Assembly (NCBI GenBank): GCA_965661285.1
Contig: CBFIDD010000002.1
Coordinates: 160,001-224,000, forward strand
Origin: Poseidonia sp.
GTDB taxonomy: Archaea; Thermoplasmatota; Poseidoniia; Poseidoniales; Poseidoniaceae
DNA length: 64,000 bases
Direction of reading: 5' to 3'
The notes under the pieces were generated by a model. The model made no database searches. It was not told the origin of the DNA and saw only the letters and a list, made by a program, of their open reading frames with translations. Positions 26,572 to 64,000 of this stretch are shown here, in pieces (positions within the stretch are counted from its first letter, which is position 1; each line of letters opens with the position of its first letter). Both the position numbers and the translations under genes were made by a program.

Positions 26572-28149
26572 TCACAATATTTCAGGATACATCTTGACCT
26601 TGTATGTGCCACCATTCAGCTCAACGGCGCCAAAGGTTTCGTAGCTCTTGACTCGATCAAAATCGCACGGCTGTGAACATGAATCAAACGGATAGTAATA
26701 GCGATTAACCAATCTTCCTGAAGCATCGGCTTCCTCGACCCAGTCCACATACGCAGTCGGTGTTGAGAGGAGCCATTTGTTGTTCACCACATCGACTTGG
26801 GCCTCAACAAAACAGGTCTGGAGAACGATTTTTCGCTCTTCGCACCAACTGTCTTTCAACGGAAGCTGGATGTAGCCCCAGGCGTGGGCCTCCCACCCTT
26901 CGTTGGAAAAGAACGGGTCGCCCAGCACACCAAAGGCGTACCAACCTGGAACGCCCCGGGTTCTCAGGATACTGAAGAACGCATTGGTTTGTTCGTCGCA
27001 ATCACCTGTTCCAGCAGCAAGACAGGCAGGACCGGAACGGGCCGGACTGGGCGCCTCACGGTCGTAGGAAACATAGGCGTGCAGATAATCGAAGGTCGCC
27101 CGAGAAAAAGCGTAGGCATTCTCAGAACTGCCCTCTGGCAGACTCGAGGCGATGGTGTCGGCCGTGGCCATGACGATAGCATCCTGCGCATTGATGGCAA
27201 AGCCTGCCCCGGGGCCGCGGTCGTACCACAGGTTGCTTCCAAATTGACCTTGTCGGACCCCGTTCCCTCGCTGTGCCAAGTCGTCAAAGGTCCCAGAATT
27301 CTCGACATTGATGCCGGTTTCCTTACCAGCGATTCGTGCGTCCACACGCCCCTCGTCCCACCAAGAGTATGACGTTGATTGCATGTGGAGGTTCAATGTA
27401 TACCGTACGTCGCCAGCCGATAGGAAATTGGTTCGGACCTTAATGCACTTCGCAAGCGGGCACTGCTCGTCGCCATCACCCACCGATGGCCACCACACCT
27501 CATGCCCACTTGGCGTCGTGATGGCGCTTGCGTAATCGCGGTCAGGCATCCCATCCAGCGGGACATTGATGTCTTGACCGTCGATAGAAAGCGTGATTTG
27601 AAGCGTCTGTTGAAGGGTAACAGGCGCGATCTCATCCGTTCCATCCGTGTAGGCAAAAGCGGTTGCACCGGTGAGCGTGGACTGAACCGTGGGTGGAATC
27701 AGGATGTTTTCTGTTTGGGAGGACGGGCCATTGGCGGTCAGATCAGAAATCTTGGAAAGCGTGTACGTTGCTTCGTTTGGATAGACGTGATATGGTGCGA
27801 GTTGGGATTGAAGGAATTCCTCAATGCCACCGAATTCTCCAAACACAGCCTCTTGTGCCTGTGGAGAGAGCATGACAAAAGCCACAAGTCCAAGCATGGC
27901 GATGCTTCGAAATCGGTTCTTTCGCCGTCTCATAATGTTGCGCTGCCGACCGGTGTGGGTTTGAACAACACCCCGCTGGGACGGCTTGGCGGCCATTTTG
28001 TAGGTGGTCTCTTTGTTTTTCTTGGATTTCGCAAATTGTTGCTCGAGCCGATAACTCCCTCGGTCGCCTTTCGGGAGAACACGACCGCAGGAATAGCAAA
28101 TCGTGTCGCCCGGCAGTGACGCACTGCGACAGTAAGGGCAAGCACCCAT
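26572..28149 (-). CDS. Membrane-anchored transglutaminase-like protein with N-terminal zinc ribbon
   Basis: CPYC..CYSC, basic region, TM, then GDCDEQ (Cys), HAW (His), VDVV (Asp). Confidence 0.8.
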   Translation of the reverse strand: MGACPYCRSASLPGDTICYSCGRVLPKGDRGSYRLEQQFAKSKKNKETTYKMAAKPSQRGVVQTHTGRQRNIMRRRKNRFRSIAMLGLVAFVMLSPQAQEAVFGEFGGIEEFLQSQLAPYHVYPNEATYTLSKISDLTANGPSSQTENILIPPTVQSTLTGATAFAYTDGTDEIAPVTLQQTLQITLSIDGQDINVPLDGMPDRDYASAITTPSGHEVWWPSVGDGDEQCPLAKCIKVRTNFLSAGDVRYTLNLHMQSTSYSWWDEGRVDARIAGKETGINVENSGTFDDLAQRGNGVRQGQFGSNLWYDRGPGAGFAINAQDAIVMATADTIASSLPEGSSENAYAFSRATFDYLHAYVSYDREAPSPARSGPACLAAGTGDCDEQTNAFFSILRTRGVPGWYAFGVLGDPFFSNEGWEAHAWGYIQLPLKDSWCEERKIVLQTCFVEAQVDVVNNKWLLSTPTAYVDWVEEADASGRLVNRYYYPFDSCSQPCDFDRVKSYETFGAVELNGGTYKVKMYPEIL

Positions 28150-28268: not shown

Positions 28269-29051
28269 TCACTCTTCCTCAACACTGGACTTACCGTTCG
28301 AAGCGCCCGTTGAGGCTGAACGTTCTCGGGCTTGTTCGGCCCAAATTCTGCGCAATCTTCGTCGCCCCTCTTTTGGAACCGATTCCCAGATCCATGTTTC
28401 GGCGTTGGGGTTGGCCAAAATGACGAACGGCAGGATGAACACCCATCCCTCCGGGTTAAACACAACAAAGTACAGACCAACCAACAGCGCTGCTCGCCAG
28501 AAGGCTGACCGGAGAACGGCGCTCCAGCGCCGGTCTTGAAGCATCATGTAGCCATGACGAGCGGTGATCAGCGCCTCAGCACGGGGTGCGACCGTCGAAA
28601 TCAGCGCGATGTTGATGAGGCCGAGAGGAGAGAAGATGTTCTCAAATTCAAACATTCGAAACATCAACACCATCGCCGTCATCCCGCCTATGGCCAGGCC
28701 AAGGGCCCAACCGCTGGAGGGTTGCGAGCCACCCTTACGAACCCGCTTTCGTCGCAGAAGCAAGTGCGAGAACACCGAGGCAAACATCACGACCATCATG
28801 AGCGAGATGACATTCAGACCGGTGTAGACCCCATCGTTGGTGGTCACCGTGGTGTAGTAAGGACGGAAAAGCATGCCATCGGCCATGACGGCGTACACCC
28901 CACCCAGCACGATGCCCCAAAAAACCTGGCTCCATGCCGTTGGTAAGTCGTAAAATCCAGCAAATTTGGTCATGACACCACGCCAGCCCAAGGTCATGCC
29001 GATGAGCGCACAGAAACTCGACAGCTGAAACAGCACGAGTTCTGAAACCAT
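28269..29051 (-). CDS. Hypothetical multi-TM membrane protein
   Basis: About 7 hydrophobic segments from MVSELVLF; weak PrsW-like look (GWALGLAIGG) but no EExxK motif. Confidence 0.65.
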   Translation of the reverse strand: MVSELVLFQLSSFCALIGMTLGWRGVMTKFAGFYDLPTAWSQVFWGIVLGGVYAVMADGMLFRPYYTTVTTNDGVYTGLNVISLMMVVMFASVFSHLLLRRKRVRKGGSQPSSGWALGLAIGGMTAMVLMFRMFEFENIFSPLGLINIALISTVAPRAEALITARHGYMMLQDRRWSAVLRSAFWRAALLVGLYFVVFNPEGWVFILPFVILANPNAETWIWESVPKEGRRRLRRIWAEQARERSASTGASNGKSSVEEE

Positions 29052-29140
29052 GGAGGGCCCTGCGTGCTTCCCTTCATCAATTCGTTGGCGTTTGATAGGG
29101 CGAGGGAGGGATTCAAACACTTCCACCGATTCCGCCATCC

Positions 29141-30397
29141 ATGGCACGACTCCTGCTCTTCGGCGGAAAAGGTGGTGTTGGGAAAACGACCACGTCGTCG
29201 GCAACCGCTGTTTGGCTGGCCGATGCTGGACTCAAGGTCCTCTTGGTGTCCAGCGACCCTGCGCATTCAACATCTGATTCGCTTGACGTGCAACTTGGTC
29301 CTGTCCCTGTTGAGGTGGATGGCGTCCCAGGACTGTACGGTCTTGAGATGGACCCCGAAGCCAAACTCTCGAACCTGCTCCCGAAGGTCGGTGAAGCGAT
29401 GAACAACATGGGTTCGGGTGGTATGGGCGGTTTTGGCGGACTTGGGATGATGCTTGACCCGTCGGCAAAGGACGAACTTTCCGAGATGAAATCCGATATC
29501 AAAACCGCCGATATGATTCTTCCTGGACTTGACGAAGCCCTCGCCTTCGATGAGTTGCTCAAGCACATGGAAAACCCGAAGTGGGACGTGGTGGTGTTTG
29601 ACACCGCTCCCACCGGCCACACCCTCCGCTTTCTTTCACTCCCGGAACTCATCGAGGCCTGGTCGGGCCGACTTTTGCGATTGATGCGGGTCTCCGGTGG
29701 TCTGCGGTCAATGCTGTTTGGTCGCAAGGAAAGCGACGCCATGAAGGAGGAACTGGAACGGTTCCGCCGGCGCGTTCTTCACGTTCGCCGCGTGCTCAGC
29801 GACCCTGCCACCTCGTCGTTCACGCTCGTCACCATTCCCGAGCGAATGGGCATCAACGAAACGCTGCGGGCCTACGAGTCACTCTTGGAGTACAACCTTC
29901 CCATCGGTGGATGTTTGGTCAACCGAATCACCCCTGAATTTGATCATGAGTTTTTGCAAAAACGCCGAGCGCAAGAACTCGACCGCATCGCTGAACTGGA
30001 TGCGAACTTAGCAGGCGTGAACGTCGGCCAACTCGAATTGGCCGACAGTGAGATTGTTGGTGTTCCCGCCCTGCGGGAAATTGGCAAATTACTCTACGGA
30101 GAGCCCAGCGAACTGCCATCTGAAATCGGACCTCACGCCATTGGTGATGTCCTGCACCATGAGGTCCATCGCGGCATGGTCGCTGAAGTTGAAGACGACC
30201 ATGAGCGAATCCGCCTTCACTTCCCGGGGCTGGAGCGAAGCGACCTGTCGTTGCGCAGTGAGGACGGCGTCCTCTTCGTCGGCGTCAACGGTCGAGAACA
30301 GGCGATTCCCACCGAAACGCACGTCAAATCAAGCCTCGTCAAAGCCTCCCTGGAAGGTGATGTTCTGGTGCTGCTCATCCCACGCACGTCCTCCTAG
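29141..30397 (+). CDS. ArsA/Get3-family ATPase with C-terminal Hsp20-like domain
   Basis: GGKGGVGKTT, SSDPAHS, PGLDE, DTAPTGHTLRFL; C-terminal LHFPGLERSDLSL..ASLEGDVLVL. Confidence 0.88.
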   Translation: MARLLLFGGKGGVGKTTTSSATAVWLADAGLKVLLVSSDPAHSTSDSLDVQLGPVPVEVDGVPGLYGLEMDPEAKLSNLLPKVGEAMNNMGSGGMGGFGGLGMMLDPSAKDELSEMKSDIKTADMILPGLDEALAFDELLKHMENPKWDVVVFDTAPTGHTLRFLSLPELIEAWSGRLLRLMRVSGGLRSMLFGRKESDAMKEELERFRRRVLHVRRVLSDPATSSFTLVTIPERMGINETLRAYESLLEYNLPIGGCLVNRITPEFDHEFLQKRRAQELDRIAELDANLAGVNVGQLELADSEIVGVPALREIGKLLYGEPSELPSEIGPHAIGDVLHHEVHRGMVAEVEDDHERIRLHFPGLERSDLSLRSEDGVLFVGVNGREQAIPTETHVKSSLVKASLEGDVLVLLIPRTSS

Positions 30398-30452
30398 GGC
30401 GTGCAGACCCAACAGGGCATGGTTTGAAATGGGTCAACCATAACGCCCTTCC

Positions 30453-31823
30453 ATGGCACTAGAGGGCTTGTCGCGAGGCATCTTCCGCTCGCTGGGCCTG
30501 TTGAAGAACAAGCGCAAGTTGGACGAGGAAGAACTGCGCGAAATGACACGGAGCCTCCGTCGAGCCCTCCAAGAAGCGGATTTCAACATCCGCCAGACCA
30601 AGGAGATCGTCGACCGTCTCGAGACACGCATGCGGGAGGAGGAACCACGACCCGGCTTGACGATGCAAACCCACGCCATGAACATCCTTTACACCGAACT
30701 GGTTCGAATCCTCGGCCCACCAACGACGTTCCAGCCCAGAGGCGCCACGCTTCTCCTCGTCGGCCTTTACGGTCAAGGAAAAACCACAACAACGGCCAAA
30801 CTGGCCGAATGGTACCGCAAGAAGCACGGTCTCCGTGTGGCCGTCATTGAAGCGGACGTTCACCGACCAGGTGCCTACGCCCAGCTTTCTCAACTTCTTG
30901 AGGACACCAGCGTTCAAGTCTACGGAGAGCCCGAGAACAAAGATGCTGTGTCCATTGTGAGGAACGGCTTACAAGCCTGTGCCTCTGCAGATTTGGTCAT
31001 TGTTGACACCGCCGGCCGCCACCAACTTGACGAGGAACTCGTGGAGGAACTCGAGCGCATCGCCGGACTCACTCGAGCAACCGACCGTTGGTTGGTCATT
31101 GACGCCCAAGTGGGTCAAGCCGCTGGTCCGGTGGCTGCTTCGTTCCACTCGTTGGCCGGTGTGACGGGCATCGTCATCACCAAACTCGACGGTACGGCTC
31201 GCGGTGGTGGCGCTCTCTCGGCTGTGGCCGCCACCGGCGCACCCATCGTTCACATCGGTGTAGGCGAACGTATTCAGGACTTGGAGAAGTTTGAGTCGGA
31301 CCGCTTCATTTCTCGCTTGCTCGGCATGGGCGACATCCAGGGCCTCATCGATTTGGCGCCCGAAGACATGGACCAGGAAGAGGCCATGCGCTTGACGCAG
31401 CGCCTCATGAGCGGTCGGTTCACCCTTAACGACATGTACAAGCAGATGGAGATGATGTCCAAGGTTGGCACGATTGACAAATTGATGTCCTTCCTCCCCG
31501 GTAGCATGCTGGGCGGCATGGGCGCCATGTCCAAGAGCCAAAAAGAAGCGATGCAGGCCAATCTTGACCGCTACCGCACCATCATGGATTCCATGACGGC
31601 GTGGGAAAAGAACGAACCCGCGAAGATCAAGGCCGACCGCATCCGTCGTATTGCCCGAGGCTCGGGTGTGCGAGAAAAGGACGTACGCGAACTCATCGGT
31701 CAGTGGAACCGTTCACGCAAGATGATGAAGGGCATGGGCGGCAACCGTAAATTGAACAAGCAAATGCGGAAGATGATGAAAGAGGGCGACATGGACATCG
31801 ACCCGTCCTCCTTCGGCATGTGA
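30453..31823 (+). CDS. srp54: Signal recognition particle protein SRP54
   Basis: GQGKTTT, DTAGRH, TKLDGTARGGGALS, Met-rich M domain, RRIARGSG. Confidence 0.97.
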   Translation: MALEGLSRGIFRSLGLLKNKRKLDEEELREMTRSLRRALQEADFNIRQTKEIVDRLETRMREEEPRPGLTMQTHAMNILYTELVRILGPPTTFQPRGATLLLVGLYGQGKTTTTAKLAEWYRKKHGLRVAVIEADVHRPGAYAQLSQLLEDTSVQVYGEPENKDAVSIVRNGLQACASADLVIVDTAGRHQLDEELVEELERIAGLTRATDRWLVIDAQVGQAAGPVAASFHSLAGVTGIVITKLDGTARGGGALSAVAATGAPIVHIGVGERIQDLEKFESDRFISRLLGMGDIQGLIDLAPEDMDQEEAMRLTQRLMSGRFTLNDMYKQMEMMSKVGTIDKLMSFLPGSMLGGMGAMSKSQKEAMQANLDRYRTIMDSMTAWEKNEPAKIKADRIRRIARGSGVREKDVRELIGQWNRSRKMMKGMGGNRKLNKQMRKMMKEGDMDIDPSSFGM

Positions 31824-31839: not shown

Positions 31840-32118
31840 ATGAGACTTGAATGGCCCGTCTACGTCTTCACGGCTTGCGTTTTCCTGGCCTTCGCCCTTG
31901 GCGTCCAATTCCTGAACCTCGGCACCGGTGCTGTGGTGGGTTTGTTCGTCCTGCTGACCGTGGCCTATGGGTGGGTTGCCTGGGTGATGATCAAGCAGAA
32001 GGCCGTGCTCGAACTTCATGCCTACGTTCCCTGCAGCAACTGTGGCGAACTGACGCCCTCACAAGGGACGCACTGCATGAACTGCGGTGCGGTGTTGCCG
32101 GCGGGTAGCGCTCAGTAA
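31840..32118 (+). CDS. Small 2-TM protein with C-terminal zinc ribbon
   Basis: Two TMs, then CSNC..CMNC. Confidence 0.7.
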   Translation: MRLEWPVYVFTACVFLAFALGVQFLNLGTGAVVGLFVLLTVAYGWVAWVMIKQKAVLELHAYVPCSNCGELTPSQGTHCMNCGAVLPAGSAQ

Positions 32119-34631: not shown

Positions 34632-35270
34632 TTAGGCCTCTTCGTCGTTGAACTTACGAACGAGTTCAGGCCCGACCAAGGCCGCAGCGCAATGTGGACA
34701 ACGGTCGGCTTGTCCGAGCATCGTAGGCTGAATAGCCAACACGGCAAGGCATGAGGGACAAGCCGCCAACATCTCGCCGTCTTGGAGGTTGAAGGCATCC
34801 GTGGGGTTGCGTCGGAGGTAGCCCATGCGATAGCCGGGGTGCCAGTGGAACAAGCCTCGCCGACCAGAACCCAACGCAGCCCACCCCATCAAAAACGCAA
34901 ACAACAAGCCGGTGATGTACCCGCTCATCAACGCCTGCAGGAGGTTGAGGAAAGCCAAGAACGCAAACATCAGGCTGGCCAAAAAGAGAATCGAGACGGC
35001 CGGCCAGTACGCCCATTGTTTTCGATTGCGGTATCCGCCGTAGACCAGCAGCGCGAAAAAGACACCAGAGCCGAGGAACACCGTACCAGCAGTGCCAGCC
35101 AAGAGGCCCATGGTGGCGAGGGCTGTGGCGAGTAAATACACGACGATGCCGCCGTCGACAAGCACGATGAAACTGGTCCCGCGGTGAATATGAGCAATAG
35201 GGTCGCTTCCGGGGGCTGGGGTCGGTGCGGAGCCCGCAAGGACCATCTCATCCGCTCGGCTTGTGCTCAC
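34632..35270 (-). CDS. 4-TM membrane protein with C-terminal zinc finger
   Basis: Hydrophobic segments then CPSC..CPHC. Confidence 0.7.
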   Translation of the reverse strand: MSTSRADEMVLAGSAPTPAPGSDPIAHIHRGTSFIVLVDGGIVVYLLATALATMGLLAGTAGTVFLGSGVFFALLVYGGYRNRKQWAYWPAVSILFLASLMFAFLAFLNLLQALMSGYITGLLFAFLMGWAALGSGRRGLFHWHPGYRMGYLRRNPTDAFNLQDGEMLAACPSCLAVLAIQPTMLGQADRCPHCAAALVGPELVRKFNDEEA

Positions 35271-60642: not shown

Positions 60643-61560
60643 TCACACCCATTCGTGGAAGCAGACGTTACAGCGCTTGGTCCGAGGGCCGTCGTGGGTG
60701 ATAACGTCGCCATCGCACTCCGGGCACACGAGGGGGACGCCGTCCATCAATCCGCCTCGAGCGGGAGCTTCGGCGGCCTTGTTGGAAGGGGGGGATTTCT
60801 TGCGGTGTTGCTGGCTGCGCTTTGAACGCTGTTGACGCTTCTTCGCTTGGTTTGACTTGGCAGCGGGTTTGGTGGCGACCAAATGCAACAGGGGTTCTTT
60901 GAGCACTTCACCGGCGACGACCAACGGGTGCGTCCTGTAGCGTGCAAGTTTGATGTGGCGGTCGAGAATGCGTCCATAGGCAGCGCTCATACAGATATAA
61001 CAGCAAATCCATGCTGGGAAAAACAGGAATTTACCTTCAAGGAGATTCCACTCCGGGGACCACGGAAGGGAGACATAGTCCACCCGAAAGGTCTCCACCT
61101 TGGTGGTCAACCACGCGAAGATACCGATGATGAAAATCATGGTGAACATCATCGGTTTCATCGCCCCCATTTGGACCTCGAGTTGCTCTGGCATCATCTG
61201 CTGCTGGAGCGTCATGGCCTTTTCTTGCAAAATCGGGTCGCGGGAAAGGCGTGCCTCGTTCATGATTTGGCGAACTTGACCTTGGCGGTGTCCGATGTGC
61301 GCCTGGTCCATGGGGTCAACGAAGAAGTTGCGAATCACGGTGTTCAGCGTCATCGAAAAGATACCAAGAATCATCACCGTGATGACGAAAAACGACTCCT
61401 CGGGCAGCACAGGTGAGAGCAAAGGATCGGCCGTTGTCCCCAGCGATGTTCGAATCGAAGGCGTCATGATGAGGACGGTCATGAGGATCATGAACATCAG
61501 CATGACAAACATTGAGCCTCCCGGTGGCGGGGGTGGCGGGGGTGAGGAACCGTTGGCCAT
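60643..61560 (-). CDS. DUF106/EMC3/TMCO1 (Oxa1 superfamily) insertase with C-terminal zinc ribbon
   Basis: TM, Met/Gln-rich coiled coil, MKPMMFTMIF, LPW, WICCYICMS; conserved DUF106-cmk-truB order; ends CPEC..CNVC. Confidence 0.82.
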   Translation of the reverse strand: MANGSSPPPPPPPGGSMFVMLMFMILMTVLIMTPSIRTSLGTTADPLLSPVLPEESFFVITVMILGIFSMTLNTVIRNFFVDPMDQAHIGHRQGQVRQIMNEARLSRDPILQEKAMTLQQQMMPEQLEVQMGAMKPMMFTMIFIIGIFAWLTTKVETFRVDYVSLPWSPEWNLLEGKFLFFPAWICCYICMSAAYGRILDRHIKLARYRTHPLVVAGEVLKEPLLHLVATKPAAKSNQAKKRQQRSKRSQQHRKKSPPSNKAAEAPARGGLMDGVPLVCPECDGDVITHDGPRTKRCNVCFHEWV

Positions 61561-61632
61561 GATGGCTCTGCGATGATGGCAGGGCATGAAGGTTAGCATG
61601 GTTCTTTTCAAGACAGGCTGGTCTACACGGTG

Positions 61633-62091
61633 ATGCGAGAACTTCAAACAAGGCGACGCTTTCGTCCCTTCATGCGCCAGAAAGAACCGCTGGATGTTTC
61701 ACCCACATGGCGCTATCCGCTGCCCATGCCCATGCCGGGTCAGCCCGTGTGTGCCACGGAACTCGAGGCCATGGAACAAGTCGAGCGCTTGCCGGTTTCA
61801 CCTCGCATGTTTTTCTGGACCGACGCCCAGCGAAAATGCCCTCAGGATTGGGGCTTCATTGGCAGCGTTCGAGAAGGTGTCCCGCCGAGCGGAATCGAGG
61901 CTGAATTGATGGCATGGGCCGACCAATACCCAAAGGCGTGGCTGGCCGTTGATATGCGAGACGGTGCCGTGCCACCATCAACCGTGCGCCCCCTCAACGA
62001 GGTTTTGTCTTCACTGAATCGACCGGTCATCGTGATCGTGAGTCGTTCTCCCGAGCACGAAGAATGGCCACAATGGGTCCTCCCAGAGTAG
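61633..62091 (+). CDS. Hypothetical protein
   Basis: About 152-aa Pro/Trp-rich ORF filling the gap; TTCAAG box upstream. Confidence 0.65.
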   Translation: MRELQTRRRFRPFMRQKEPLDVSPTWRYPLPMPMPGQPVCATELEAMEQVERLPVSPRMFFWTDAQRKCPQDWGFIGSVREGVPPSGIEAELMAWADQYPKAWLAVDMRDGAVPPSTVRPLNEVLSSLNRPVIVIVSRSPEHEEWPQWVLPE

Positions 62092-62136: not shown

Positions 62137-64000
62137 TCATTCGGTGAACGTGTAGCCGCAGGCGTTGCAGGTGCCAGCATCCGCTGCATTAACGGTGGAA
62201 CAAATGGGACAGGCCTTCTCTTCGGCAGATGCCTCTTCGGCAGATGCCTCTTCAGCAGGCGCAGCCTCTTCTTCCTCGGTTTCCCCGTTGGCTTCGTTCC
62301 AAGCCTTGGCAGCGTCTTCCAATTCTGCCTTCTTGAGGTAGCCGTTGTCGTCGTGGTCGTAATCCACGGCGAATTCCACAAACGCATCTCGGTGGCTGGC
62401 GTCAATTCCAGCAGCGTCCATGACCCGCAAGAGCATGTCTTCTCGGAATTTCATCTTGGGAGCGCTCTCTTCAACCGCTTCTTCGGATTCAGCATCTTCG
62501 GATGCAGCGTCTTCAGATGCCGCCGCTTCCGTGGTCTCCGGCTCGGCCTCGGCTTCGGCTTCTGCCTCTTCCGACTCAACGCTGGGCAAATCCTCGGTTT
62601 CAATCTCATCGCCGAAGTGAACGCCGTGGAAGCGGTTCAGTGCTTCTGCGTCAACTTCCCCGCTTCCCTTGATGTCAAAGGACACTTCGAGACGCTCGCC
62701 CTTCTCCACCTTCGGAACATGCCACGTGATGTGAAGGCCACCTTCGCCCTCTTCGGAGGTCATGGTGACATCGTCTCGCTTGCCGTCAGCACTCTTCATT
62801 TCCCATTCCTTGATTTCAAATTGGGGTGGAAGAACATCGTTGATGTACAGGTCGCTGAGCGCCGTATCGCCGTTGTTCTCGAACAAGATGAGCACTTCGT
62901 AGCGACCCTTCCCACCCAGTGGAATGGCCTGCTTACCGGCGCTAAAGTTTCGGCGGTTGTGGACGACCTTCAGACTGGGAGTTTCGGTTGGTTCCCTGGT
63001 GCAGATGGGGCCGAAGCGTTCGGCACTGAACTCGATACGAGCAGGGGCGTCCACTCGCTCGTTGGCCGGCGAGGGGTCGGGAGCCGAAAGTGGGTAGGAG
63101 ATTTCGATTTTCTTTCCTGCTTTGAGGCCGATGGGACCGCGAGTTCCGACGGTCAGCATCATGGTATGACCTTGGCCGTCGGGTGAGCGGTGTTCCTTCT
63201 CAAGCGTGATGCCTTCGGAAAGTTCCACCTTGTACTGGTCGTCGTCGATGATTTTGCCGTCGATCTTGATGCTCAACTGCTCCTTAGTGGGCGCTTCGAA
63301 CAGTCCGGGAATGTCGTCGGTGATGCGCATCAGATTGATGGTGGATGAACCCTTGTTGACGAGGGTCATGGTCGCCTGAATCTTCTGCTCACGATAGGAG
63401 CGGAGGTTTTCCGTGGAGTAGGTTTTGGAAACATCTGCCTCCAACACCTCGAGTTTCTTCTCCTCGAGCGTCATCGTTCCCTCGGAGGTCTGAACCGCCT
63501 TGGGCAGCACCGTATAGGAGAGGTCGTAGGTGAAGTCTGGCTCGGACTGTGCCATCACCGTTCGCTCATCTGACTCCCACTTTCCATTCGGACCCACATC
63601 CTGGTCGACATCGTGAACGTCAAAGAGAAGGTCCTCACTTCCCTTCATGCTCACTTGCAACTTGGTCAAATCAACAGCAAAGGAAGAGCGGTTTTCGAAG
63701 ATGGCTTTGCAAATCCAATTGTCAGGACGCTCGTCTTCTCGGACGCGCATGTAGGTGAAACCGCGACAAAACGCATCCAACTCGCGGAAGGACATGTTCG
63801 AGACCGTAGCGTCTGCCTTGTAGGTGGCCGCTGCCTTTCCAGCCTTGATGGCCTTGGTGGAGTCAACCCTGATGGTTCCCTCAAGGGCAAGGGTTTGGGT
63901 TTCGCCAGCCTGTAGGCGACCGACGGTCCACGTGATGACACCGTCGTCGAGCTCGGCTCCCGGAGCCATTTCAAAGTGCATAGCATCGGCCAGTGGGCGA
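62137..64000 (-). CDS. Large beta-sandwich (DUF11-like) protein with EF-hand and C-terminal zinc ribbon, 5' truncated
   Basis: Frame open to window end; FENNGDTALSDLYINDVLP..ITWHV repeats; DHDDNGYLKKAE; CPIC..CNAC. Confidence 0.75.
   Translation of the reverse strand, partial: RPLADAMHFEMAPGAELDDGVITWTVGRLQAGETQTLALEGTIRVDSTKAIKAGKAAATYKADATVSNMSFRELDAFCRGFTYMRVREDERPDNWICKAIFENRSSFAVDLTKLQVSMKGSEDLLFDVHDVDQDVGPNGKWESDERTVMAQSEPDFTYDLSYTVLPKAVQTSEGTMTLEEKKLEVLEADVSKTYSTENLRSYREQKIQATMTLVNKGSSTINLMRITDDIPGLFEAPTKEQLSIKIDGKIIDDDQYKVELSEGITLEKEHRSPDGQGHTMMLTVGTRGPIGLKAGKKIEISYPLSAPDPSPANERVDAPARIEFSAERFGPICTREPTETPSLKVVHNRRNFSAGKQAIPLGGKGRYEVLILFENNGDTALSDLYINDVLPPQFEIKEWEMKSADGKRDDVTMTSEEGEGGLHITWHVPKVEKGERLEVSFDIKGSGEVDAEALNRFHGVHFGDEIETEDLPSVESEEAEAEAEAEPETTEAAASEDAASEDAESEEAVEESAPKMKFREDMLLRVMDAAGIDASHRDAFVEFAVDYDHDDNGYLKKAELEDAAKAWNEANGETEEEEAAPAEEASAEEASAEEKACPICSTVNAADAGTCNACGYTFTE
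62218..62258. repeat. 15-bp coding tandem repeat (CTCTTCGGCAGATGC, about 2.6 copies)
   Basis: Seen directly; encodes (ASAEE)n linker. Confidence 0.75.

Follow-up and report, generated by a model that had tools for sequence, protein, structure and literature searches.

Archaeal homologs of Get3 are reported, in the sections of Farkas et al. (2019) that deal with them, to bind tail-anchored proteins and, in at least one case where the CxxC motif is lacking, to dimerize. Table 1 of this study contains a 'Group 11' of 21 cytoplasmic sequences from Euryarchaeota and Thaumarchaeota that harbor a single Get3 domain, a TRC40 insert, and an alpha-crystallin domain, and that are devoid of both CxC and CxxC motifs; the passages devoted to this group do not discuss gene context. 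According to the part of Barlow et al. (2023) that concerns Get3d, the tail of this protein is dispensable for tail-anchor capture, and the Pfam family PF17886 was used to find such proteins. Here, we analyze a get3-like gene located upstream from srp54 in a window of 64,000 nucleotides (nt) from the archaeon Poseidonia sp. (contig CBFIDD010000002.1, positions 160,001 to 224,000), the first letter of which is position 1 for all coordinates below. The gene (29141..30397, plus strand) encodes a protein of 418 residues made of a single-domain ATPase of the ArsA/Get3 family and a C-terminal alpha-crystallin-like domain. We propose, with a probability of about 0.6, that this protein is an ATP-driven chaperone of the Get3 type whose clients are exposed transmembrane segments, that it represents an archaeal variant lacking CxxC and bearing a tail, and that its gene lies beside srp54 in an inherited block and possesses its own promoter. 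The mechanism proposed for this chaperone is drawn from the family to which it belongs.

The first-pass annotation, made from the letters of the window, had described a single-ATPase-domain ArsA/Get3 protein, and profile searches bore out this assignment. Pfam detected one ATPase domain in the 418 residues (ArsA_ATPase, PF02374; residues 3-319, E 5.3e-75, 252.9 bits for a cut-off of 24.3), and the score of the entire protein against the NCBIfam profile TIGR00345 (GET3_arsA_TRC40) was 259.6 bits for a cut-off of 135. The start of the open reading frame (ORF), MARLLLFGGKGG, is kept among homologs. The genome, which is 93% complete, encodes one true member of the ArsA/Get3 family, two other Pfam matches being limited to the P-loop. 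Three nucleotide-binding motifs, all on the plus strand, are at least 90% conserved in an alignment of 30 sequences. These are the P-loop, a deviant Walker A motif (29162..29191, residues 8-17, conserved from G8 to T17), the switch I motif DPAHS (29255..29269, residues 39-43), which phmmer aligned with the identical motif of archaeal Get3 chains, and the switch II motif DTAPTGHT (29600..29623, residues 154-161). The AlphaFold model of the whole protein (mean predicted local distance difference test [pLDDT] score of 78.5, predicted template-modeling score [pTM] of 0.80) comprises the ATPase core of Get3, a helical subdomain that is disordered at residues 83-125, and an all-beta domain at residues 330-414. 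Close homologs are designated 'TRC40/GET3/ArsA family transport-energizing ATPase' by NCBI; many of them are labeled 'arsenite-transporting ATPase' by JGI. The names of a few homologs displaying 86-87% identity assign the genome to Poseidonia, within Marine Group II (order Poseidoniales).

Among single-domain proteins of known structure, the best phmmer matches were Get3 from Methanocaldococcus jannaschii (E 1.6e-64) and from Methanothermobacter thermautotrophicus (E 5.5e-63). Yeast Get3 and Escherichia coli ArsA (both at about 1e-37) and Nostoc Get3d (3.4e-8) came far behind. The same two archaeal proteins provided the best Foldseek matches (E 1e-26 to 1e-24, target template-modeling [TM] scores of 0.74-0.78). 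The top total phmmer score was obtained with ArsA1 from Chlamydomonas (5zme, E 5.9e-86) because the scores of its two tandem domains, about 149 and 144 bits, were summed. A quick maximum-likelihood tree was built from 73 domain rows under the LG+G4 model, with supports provided by the SH-like approximate likelihood ratio test (SH-aLRT) only; it included 20 of the 126 two-domain proteins of the searched set (every sixth), no fragments, and no named yeast Get3 or Get3d sequence. In this tree, the Get3 proteins of the Poseidoniales formed one clade (SH-aLRT 100), and the sister group of this clade (99) consisted of single-domain proteins, most of which combine a tail with CxxC and one of which originates from a metagenome-assembled genome (MAG) of Heimdallarchaeota.

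The presence of a Met/Gly-rich insert had been put forward in the first-pass annotation. A Met/Gly-rich stretch is indeed present (29393..29455, plus strand, residues 85-105), but it is located in the client-binding subdomain, within a disordered loop, and not in the TRC40 insert proper. The loop connects two helices of the model (residues 72-91 and 107-119), and pLDDT values are below 50 at residues 83-110 and 112-125. The corresponding region comprises 41-52 residues in 11 of the 12 Poseidoniales sequences, versus 27-39 in the other homologs that were compared. The TRC40-type insert region (29663..29755, plus strand, approximately residues 175-205) adopts a helical structure that is interrupted at residues 187-193, where confidence is low. 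Measured from about residue 170 to residue 212, it spans 43 residues versus 29 and 17 in the two halves of ArsA from an E. coli plasmid, a difference of 14-26 residues, and 41-51 residues in other archaeal-type single-domain homologs. The insert region contains three Met residues and the adjoining loop seven, the latter being modeled as disordered in what is a model of the monomer.

The protein contains a single Cys residue, C258, and none at the position of the Get3 zinc site, as had been noted from the sequence. The CxxC motif of the M. jannaschii and M. thermautotrophicus enzymes (3ug6 and 3zq6) was aligned by phmmer to the Cys-free segment PEFDHEFLQKRR; the equivalent site (29933..29968, plus strand, residues 265-276) contains D268 and H269. 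The CxxC motif was absent from this site in all 12 Poseidoniales sequences, and Asp-His was found instead in 11 of them. The protein also harbors a His-rich linker (G-P-H ... H-H .. H-R-G; 30128-30190, residues ~330-350) ahead of the alpha-crystallin sandwich; this linker is shared by the majority of genera in the family, two genera being without it. Together with D268-H269, the linker might be a candidate metal-binding or interface element.

The C-terminal tail (30128..30382, plus strand, residues 330-414) was modeled as an all-beta sandwich of the alpha-crystallin or ArsA_HSP20-like type, with pLDDT values of 84-94 in the model of the full protein. The tail analyzed alone scored 16.1 bits (E 0.0085) against Pfam ArsA_HSP20 (PF17886), below the cut-off of 22.5. 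A separate model of residues 316-418, based on a 26-row alignment (pLDDT 81.5), had as its best matches of known structure small heat-shock proteins (sHSPs), alpha-crystallins, or related CS domains, with a probability of 1.00 and TM scores of 0.5-0.6; these matches included Hsp21, Sulfolobus Hsp20.1, wheat HSP16.9, MjHSP16.5, and human alphaB-crystallin. The links to PF17886 were taken from genome searches, as a search for homologs of the tail alone (residues 322-418) returned 110 proteins, all of them relatives of high identity. Six other Poseidoniales proteins were compared with PF17886. Those of two genera exceeded the cut-off (23.3 and 24.7 bits), three scored 15.3-18.3 bits, and one gave no match. 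The cut-off was also reached by a protein from another Thermoplasmatota archaeon (genome G176, 23.3 bits) and by the protein from the Heimdallarchaeota MAG (27.9 bits), and ten proteins from a second Thermoplasmatota lineage scored 55-69 bits. The Poseidoniales tails align in register with these strong members of the family. Since the fold matches are sHSPs and relatives reach the PF17886 cut-off, the tail can be assigned to a known domain family, of which it is a divergent representative. The alpha-crystallin-like C-terminus recognized in the first-pass annotation was therefore upheld by the fold of the tail model, although the PF17886 score is below the cut-off.

By reference to the Get3 family, two subunits of the protein would close around ATP, and this closure would shape the helical subdomain (approximately residues 72-125 and 159-220) into a hydrophobic groove lined with Met residues. 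With the TRC40-type insert and the lineage-specific, flexible Met/Gly-rich loop as its cover, the groove would shield post-translationally a transmembrane segment that is C-terminal or exposed in some other way, and the client would be let go at the membrane after ATP hydrolysis. The dimer would be held without a Cys-zinc clasp. The role of the alpha-crystallin tail would be accessory, like that of the Get3d tail, without which clients are still bound. The gene would be transcribed from its own leaderless-type promoter in spite of its tandem arrangement with srp54, and the Ylp1/DUF106 insertase is a candidate for the membrane receptor.

The distribution of get3 was determined in 151 Poseidoniales genomes that were at least 85% complete, a score above the TIGR00345 cut-off being recorded as presence. 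The gene was found in 90 of these genomes. In the family of the window, including the window genome itself, it was present in 85 of 87 genomes; one of the remaining two contained a fragment at a contig end and the other, 90% complete, had none. It was also present in the only genome of a second family. In the third (sister) family, get3 was limited to two genera and to 4 of 63 genomes. We infer that this third family, which has smaller genomes, corresponds to Marine Group IIb (MGIIb), and the pattern looks like a lineage-wide loss of get3. For the phylum as a whole, a match at E <=1e-30 was obtained in 95 of 201 genomes, with none in the four genomes of another family of the same class.

The srp54 gene (30453..31823, plus strand) encodes a protein of 456 residues containing the SRP54_N, SRP54 GTPase, and SRP_SPB (M) domains (PF02881, PF00448, and PF02978; TIGR00959 E 1.5e-113). 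As stated in the first-pass annotation, it follows get3 on the same strand after a spacer of 55 nt (30398-30452). The M domain (31400-31560) has a Met/Gly-rich stretch of its own, LPGSMLGGMGAM, with a composition resembling that of the Get3 loop; the two stretches probably reflect the parallel use of flexible Met-rich lids. The same gene order was found in all 20 informative loci from the genus of the window and from the second family (two more loci end at contig edges), and in six of eight informative loci from other Poseidoniales genera, get3 being located elsewhere in two genera (loci L035 and L038) and two further loci ending too early to judge. Fifteen of 16 additional Poseidoniales loci also displayed the adjacency, the last one ending inside get3. 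Taken by genus, srp54 follows get3 in 8 of the 10 Poseidoniales genera that are informative, down to 40-45% identity between Get3 sequences. Outside the order, srp54 was not found beside get3 in any of 14 Thermoplasmatota loci inspected over 1.2-1.5 kb on each side. The synteny named as a check in the first-pass annotation thus held within the Poseidoniales but not beyond.

Upstream from get3 and divergent from it lies a gene for a polytopic membrane protein (28269..29051, minus strand) that belongs to no Pfam family. Its longest ORF (28269-29204) is open as far as position 29204 and overlaps the start of get3, and its start is likely to be near position 29051. In the Protein Atlas, the membrane protein falls into unlabeled archaeal clusters with weak leads to PrsW/YhfC intramembrane proteases (13-14% of members). 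The membrane-protein gene is syntenic across the order, as is the convergent downstream gene for prolyl-tRNA synthetase (ProRS) wherever the flank extends far enough. Because the whole block, including these two genes, is syntenic, the adjacency is not specific to the get3-srp54 pair. Four of five genomes of the third family that lack Get3 (loci L102, L104, L105, and L106) have srp54 directly beside a homolog of the upstream membrane-protein gene, indicating that the block also exists with get3 simply missing. Scans with Rfam and for tRNAs identified no RNA of the signal recognition particle (SRP) or any other RNA near get3 and srp54. We found no paper on Get3 in Marine Group II and, as judged by titles and the beginnings of abstracts, none on get3-srp54 adjacency in archaea.

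Several neighbors combine a zinc ribbon with parts that look membrane-bound or extracellular. They comprise a transglutaminase-like protein with an N-terminal ribbon (26572-28149, minus strand), a protein of 92 residues with a transmembrane segment and a ribbon encoded 16 nt after srp54 (31840-32118, plus strand), a membrane protein of 212 residues with a ribbon (34632-35270, minus strand), and an acidic protein of 614 residues with a C-terminal ribbon (62137-63981, minus strand).

Both get3 and srp54 are preceded by a promoter-like box ending 23 nt before the ATG codon, TTCAAA for the former (29112..29117, plus strand) and TTGAAA, located in the spacer, for the latter (30424..30429, plus strand). 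Nine more loci from relatives have a TT(C/G)AA(A/G) box at about the same place ahead of get3. Inspection by eye of 37 distinct get3-srp54 spacers from relatives revealed TT(G/C)AAA at 22-24 nt in 32 of them, and the box also precedes srp54 in four of the five Get3-less relatives. Across the genome, upstream from 2145 ORFs of at least 150 codons, TT(G/C)AAA was counted at each spacing from 0 to 54 nt; 9, 23, and 15 occurrences were found at 22, 23, and 24 nt (47 in sum, with the mode at 23 nt) versus 0-8 at other spacings. In the window, the same box is present before starts at 35270 (minus strand), 47660 (minus strand), 47726 (plus strand), and 61672 (plus strand). The position of TT(G/C)AAA suggests that it is the TATA-like box of mostly leaderless mRNAs. 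Under this interpretation, srp54 would be transcribed from a promoter of its own. The 55-nt spacer shows no T-run terminator. The best reading of these data is that get3 and srp54 are two neighboring housekeeping genes in a conserved inherited block and do not form an obligate operon.

An insertase gene of the EMC3/Get1 family had also been reported in the window and considered as a possible recipient of clients. A gene for a DUF106/EMC3-TMCO1 (Ylp1-type) insertase does exist at 60643..61560 (PF01956, E 8.3e-17), on the minus strand and within an ORF extending to position 61647 (60643..61647). It is located 30 kb from get3, on the opposite strand, and the two genes are 107 kb apart in a relative with a single contig. 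DUF106 was detected in all 41 Poseidoniales genomes searched, including 20 of 20 from the family that mostly lacks Get3, in which the coiled coil is well conserved. The protein has a long basic C-terminal tail, a Met-rich coiled coil and, at its extreme C-terminus, an invariant four-Cys zinc ribbon (C219, C222, C237, and C240). The DUF106 family was encountered in the course of a search for archaeal Get1 homologs, as related in the portion of Anghel et al. (2017) that deals with it, and hand-off of clients to the DUF106 insertase is on this basis a reasonable hypothesis. It already exists in the literature and receives no support from linkage in this locus, since the DUF106 gene is unlinked to get3 and present in genomes without it.

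Several observations weigh against a Get3-type chaperone for exposed transmembrane segments expressed from its own promoter. The protein lacks the zinc-binding CxxC motif, which stabilizes most of the Get3 dimers that have been studied; CxxC is not family-defining, however, because the tabulation of Farkas et al. (2019) includes whole Get3 groups without it. The Met/Gly-rich loop is missing from one Poseidoniales genus (region of 29 residues), and it is therefore inessential to the function of the family. No get3 was found above the cut-off in 59 of the 63 sister-family genomes and in one genome of the window's own family, all at least 85% complete; close relatives that have retained SRP54 and DUF106 can thus do without the gene. 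We know of no Get1, Get2, or Get4 homolog. Searches of the genome with the Pfam Get1 and Get4 profiles returned no match, an uninformative result since the controls matched nowhere either. In favor of the chaperone, a crude census provides candidate clients, 18 tail-anchor-like ORFs among 1686; this number was, however, obtained by a hydrophobicity heuristic applied to raw ORFs and includes likely secreted proteins with C-terminal anchors. Finally, the promoters are putative ones, proposed from the position of a motif, and transcription may read through from get3 into srp54, as the spacer has no visible T-run.

The label given by JGI to many close homologs and the name of the Pfam family, 'Anion-transporting ATPase', would fit an ATPase that powers a pump for the efflux of arsenite or antimonite (ArsA), a function that we regard as extremely improbable for this protein. 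Its ATPase domain is not duplicated, and the profiles for arsenic ArsA were rejected (TIGR04291, 126.3 bits for a cut-off of 650; NF041417, 142 bits for a cut-off of 800). Identity to the annotated ArsA of an E. coli plasmid, the gene of which adjoins arsD and arsR, is limited to 28.9%. In the ArsA/Get3 tree, the two halves of E. coli ArsA were placed in a separate clade (SH-aLRT 99). The two Cys residues of these halves, which we take to be metalloid ligands, align to Gly129. A profile search of the ORFs neighboring get3 and srp54 identified TrkA, a transglutaminase-like protein, the family-less membrane protein, a zinc-ribbon protein, and ProRS, but no ars gene, in agreement with the reported absence of arsB, acr3, arsD, and arsR from the vicinity. 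For Acr3, ArsD, and a true ArsB, profile searches extended this result to the genome, which is 93% complete. The lone 'ArsB' match, located on another contig, was rejected as a CitMHS transporter (272 bits for CitMHS versus 55 for ArsB). This transporter of 630 residues (contig C6:3598-4935) passes the Pfam ArsB cut-off (54.9 bits) and probably gives rise to erroneous 'arsenic pump' annotations. The profile scores, the position in the tree, the lack of the metalloid Cys residues, and the lack of ars genes together indicate that the protein is Get3-like and not an arsenic ArsA, as the first-pass annotation had anticipated.

Two further readings retain the Get3 assignment and differ in the role that they attribute to the protein. 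It is conceivable, if rather unlikely, that the protein is a general holdase or stress chaperone, whose tail and hydrophobic groove would bind unfolded proteins without a dedicated membrane receptor. The sHSP fold of the tail and the dispensability of the gene in most of the sister family are in favor of such a role, as is, weakly, the lack of any match to a GET receptor or pre-targeting factor, the controls of the Get1 and Get4 searches having matched nowhere. The full conservation of the ATPase motifs argues against it, and the holdase switch of yeast Get3 depends on cysteines, of which a single one is present here. Also in its favor, holdase activity of Get3 is documented in passages of Farkas et al. 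(2019) and Barlow et al. (2023); against it, the latter describe the Get3d tail, which is not the tail considered here, as lacking the oligomerization features of sHSPs. The first-pass annotation had favored a candidate targeting module formed with srp54. In a functional module of this kind, the two genes would be co-regulated or co-transcribed and their products would share clients or an insertase (DUF106/Ylp1 or SecYEG). The adjacency on which this proposal was founded is real within the order: the genes are on the same strand, separated by 55 nt without a visible terminator, preceded by the same promoter-like box, and kept together in 8 of 10 informative genera. However, none of the 14 loci from outside the order has srp54 within the 1.2-1.5 kb inspected on each side of get3, and get3 is found elsewhere in two genera of the order itself. 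The synteny concerns the whole block rather than the pair, each gene has a promoter-like box, and srp54 keeps both its box and its upstream neighbor in relatives devoid of Get3. In addition, TT(G/C)AAA at this spacing is a genome-wide feature, and DUF106 is unlinked to get3 and present in all 41 genomes searched. The targeting module is accordingly unproven, and we consider it unlikely. More speculative still, and quite improbable in our view, is a membrane-protein-biogenesis island of the Poseidoniales that would assemble the divergently transcribed gene of the PrsW/YhfC-like polytopic membrane protein and the genes of a Get3 with a Cys-free zinc site and an alpha-crystallin tail and of SRP54 under one type of leaderless promoter. 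Get3 would then operate after translation, in parallel with SRP and on an insertase common to both, the D-H pair, possibly with the His-rich linker, would provide a contact replacing the zinc CxxC, and get3 would have been cleanly deleted in the streamlined sister family.

Reading the gene as encoding a Get3-type chaperone has several consequences. Marine Group II consists of uncultured archaea that abound in the surface ocean, and the automatic name 'arsenite ATPase' would mislead metabolic and arsenic-cycling surveys. The Cys-free interface combined with the alpha-crystallin tail provides a testable case of Get3 dimers held without zinc. Finally, a family with get3 (85 of 87 genomes) and a family mostly without it (59 of 63) offer a natural comparison for the need of archaeal Get3.

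Among known systems, the ArsA encoded by the ars operon of an E. coli plasmid (NZ_CP139805.1) shares the ATPase superfamily and the Pfam family with the protein of the window, but it is duplicated, has metalloid cysteines, has no TRC40 insert, and is encoded in an arsR-arsD-arsA context. ArsA1 from Chlamydomonas, identified as a tail-anchor targeting factor in the part of the report on it that bears on function (PMC11170914), is a fused pseudo-dimer without the alpha-crystallin tail. The second Thermoplasmatota lineage combining Get3 with ArsA_HSP20 (10 genomes; families f6, f32, and f42) has the same two-domain architecture and also lacks CxxC. It differs by its low identity (23-29% by tblastn), its separate, strongly supported clade, an insert region of 48 residues, and stronger matches to PF17886 (55-69 bits versus about 15-25 bits for those Poseidoniales sequences that produce a match). 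In this lineage, get3 was never beside srp54 in the 13 loci seen (L042-L044, L048, L049, L055, L056, L059-L062, L066, and L070), ten of which were scanned for PF17886.

Get3d (All4481 from Nostoc and Get3d from Arabidopsis; 3igf and 8egk) resembles the protein of the window in the succession of an ATPase and a C-terminal alpha-crystallin domain, and both tails relate to PF17886. Foldseek aligned Nostoc Get3d (8egk_B) over 426 columns, a length indicating that the alignment takes in the tail. The comparison made in the first-pass annotation is thus valid for the architecture but does not extend to membership, as Get3d is distant in sequence and the protein scored 74.7 bits against NF050088 for a cut-off of 325. 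Moreover, Get3d is found in photosynthetic lineages, whereas the protein of the window is archaeal and its motifs are intact. The active site of Get3d is incomplete according to the relevant part of Barlow et al. (2023). The Get3 proteins of M. jannaschii (3ug6 and 3ug7) and M. thermautotrophicus (3zq6) share with the protein of the window a single-domain ATPase of the SIMIBI class, its motifs, and the TRC40-type insert. They carry the CxxC motif for zinc and lack a C-terminal domain, in contrast to the D-H pair at the CxxC site, the alpha-crystallin tail, and the longer Met/Gly-rich loop of the Poseidonia protein. The closest description is that of Group 11 as given in Table 1 of Farkas et al. 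(2019), the feature set of which is matched exactly by the protein of the window, the comparison being made by features and not with the list of sequences. Group 11 is devoid of CxxC, whereas the nearest tail-bearing relatives of the protein carry this motif. An archaeal Get3 with the insert, without CxxC, and with an alpha-crystallin tail has thus already been described, and the protein of the window belongs to this known architecture and not to a new kind of system.

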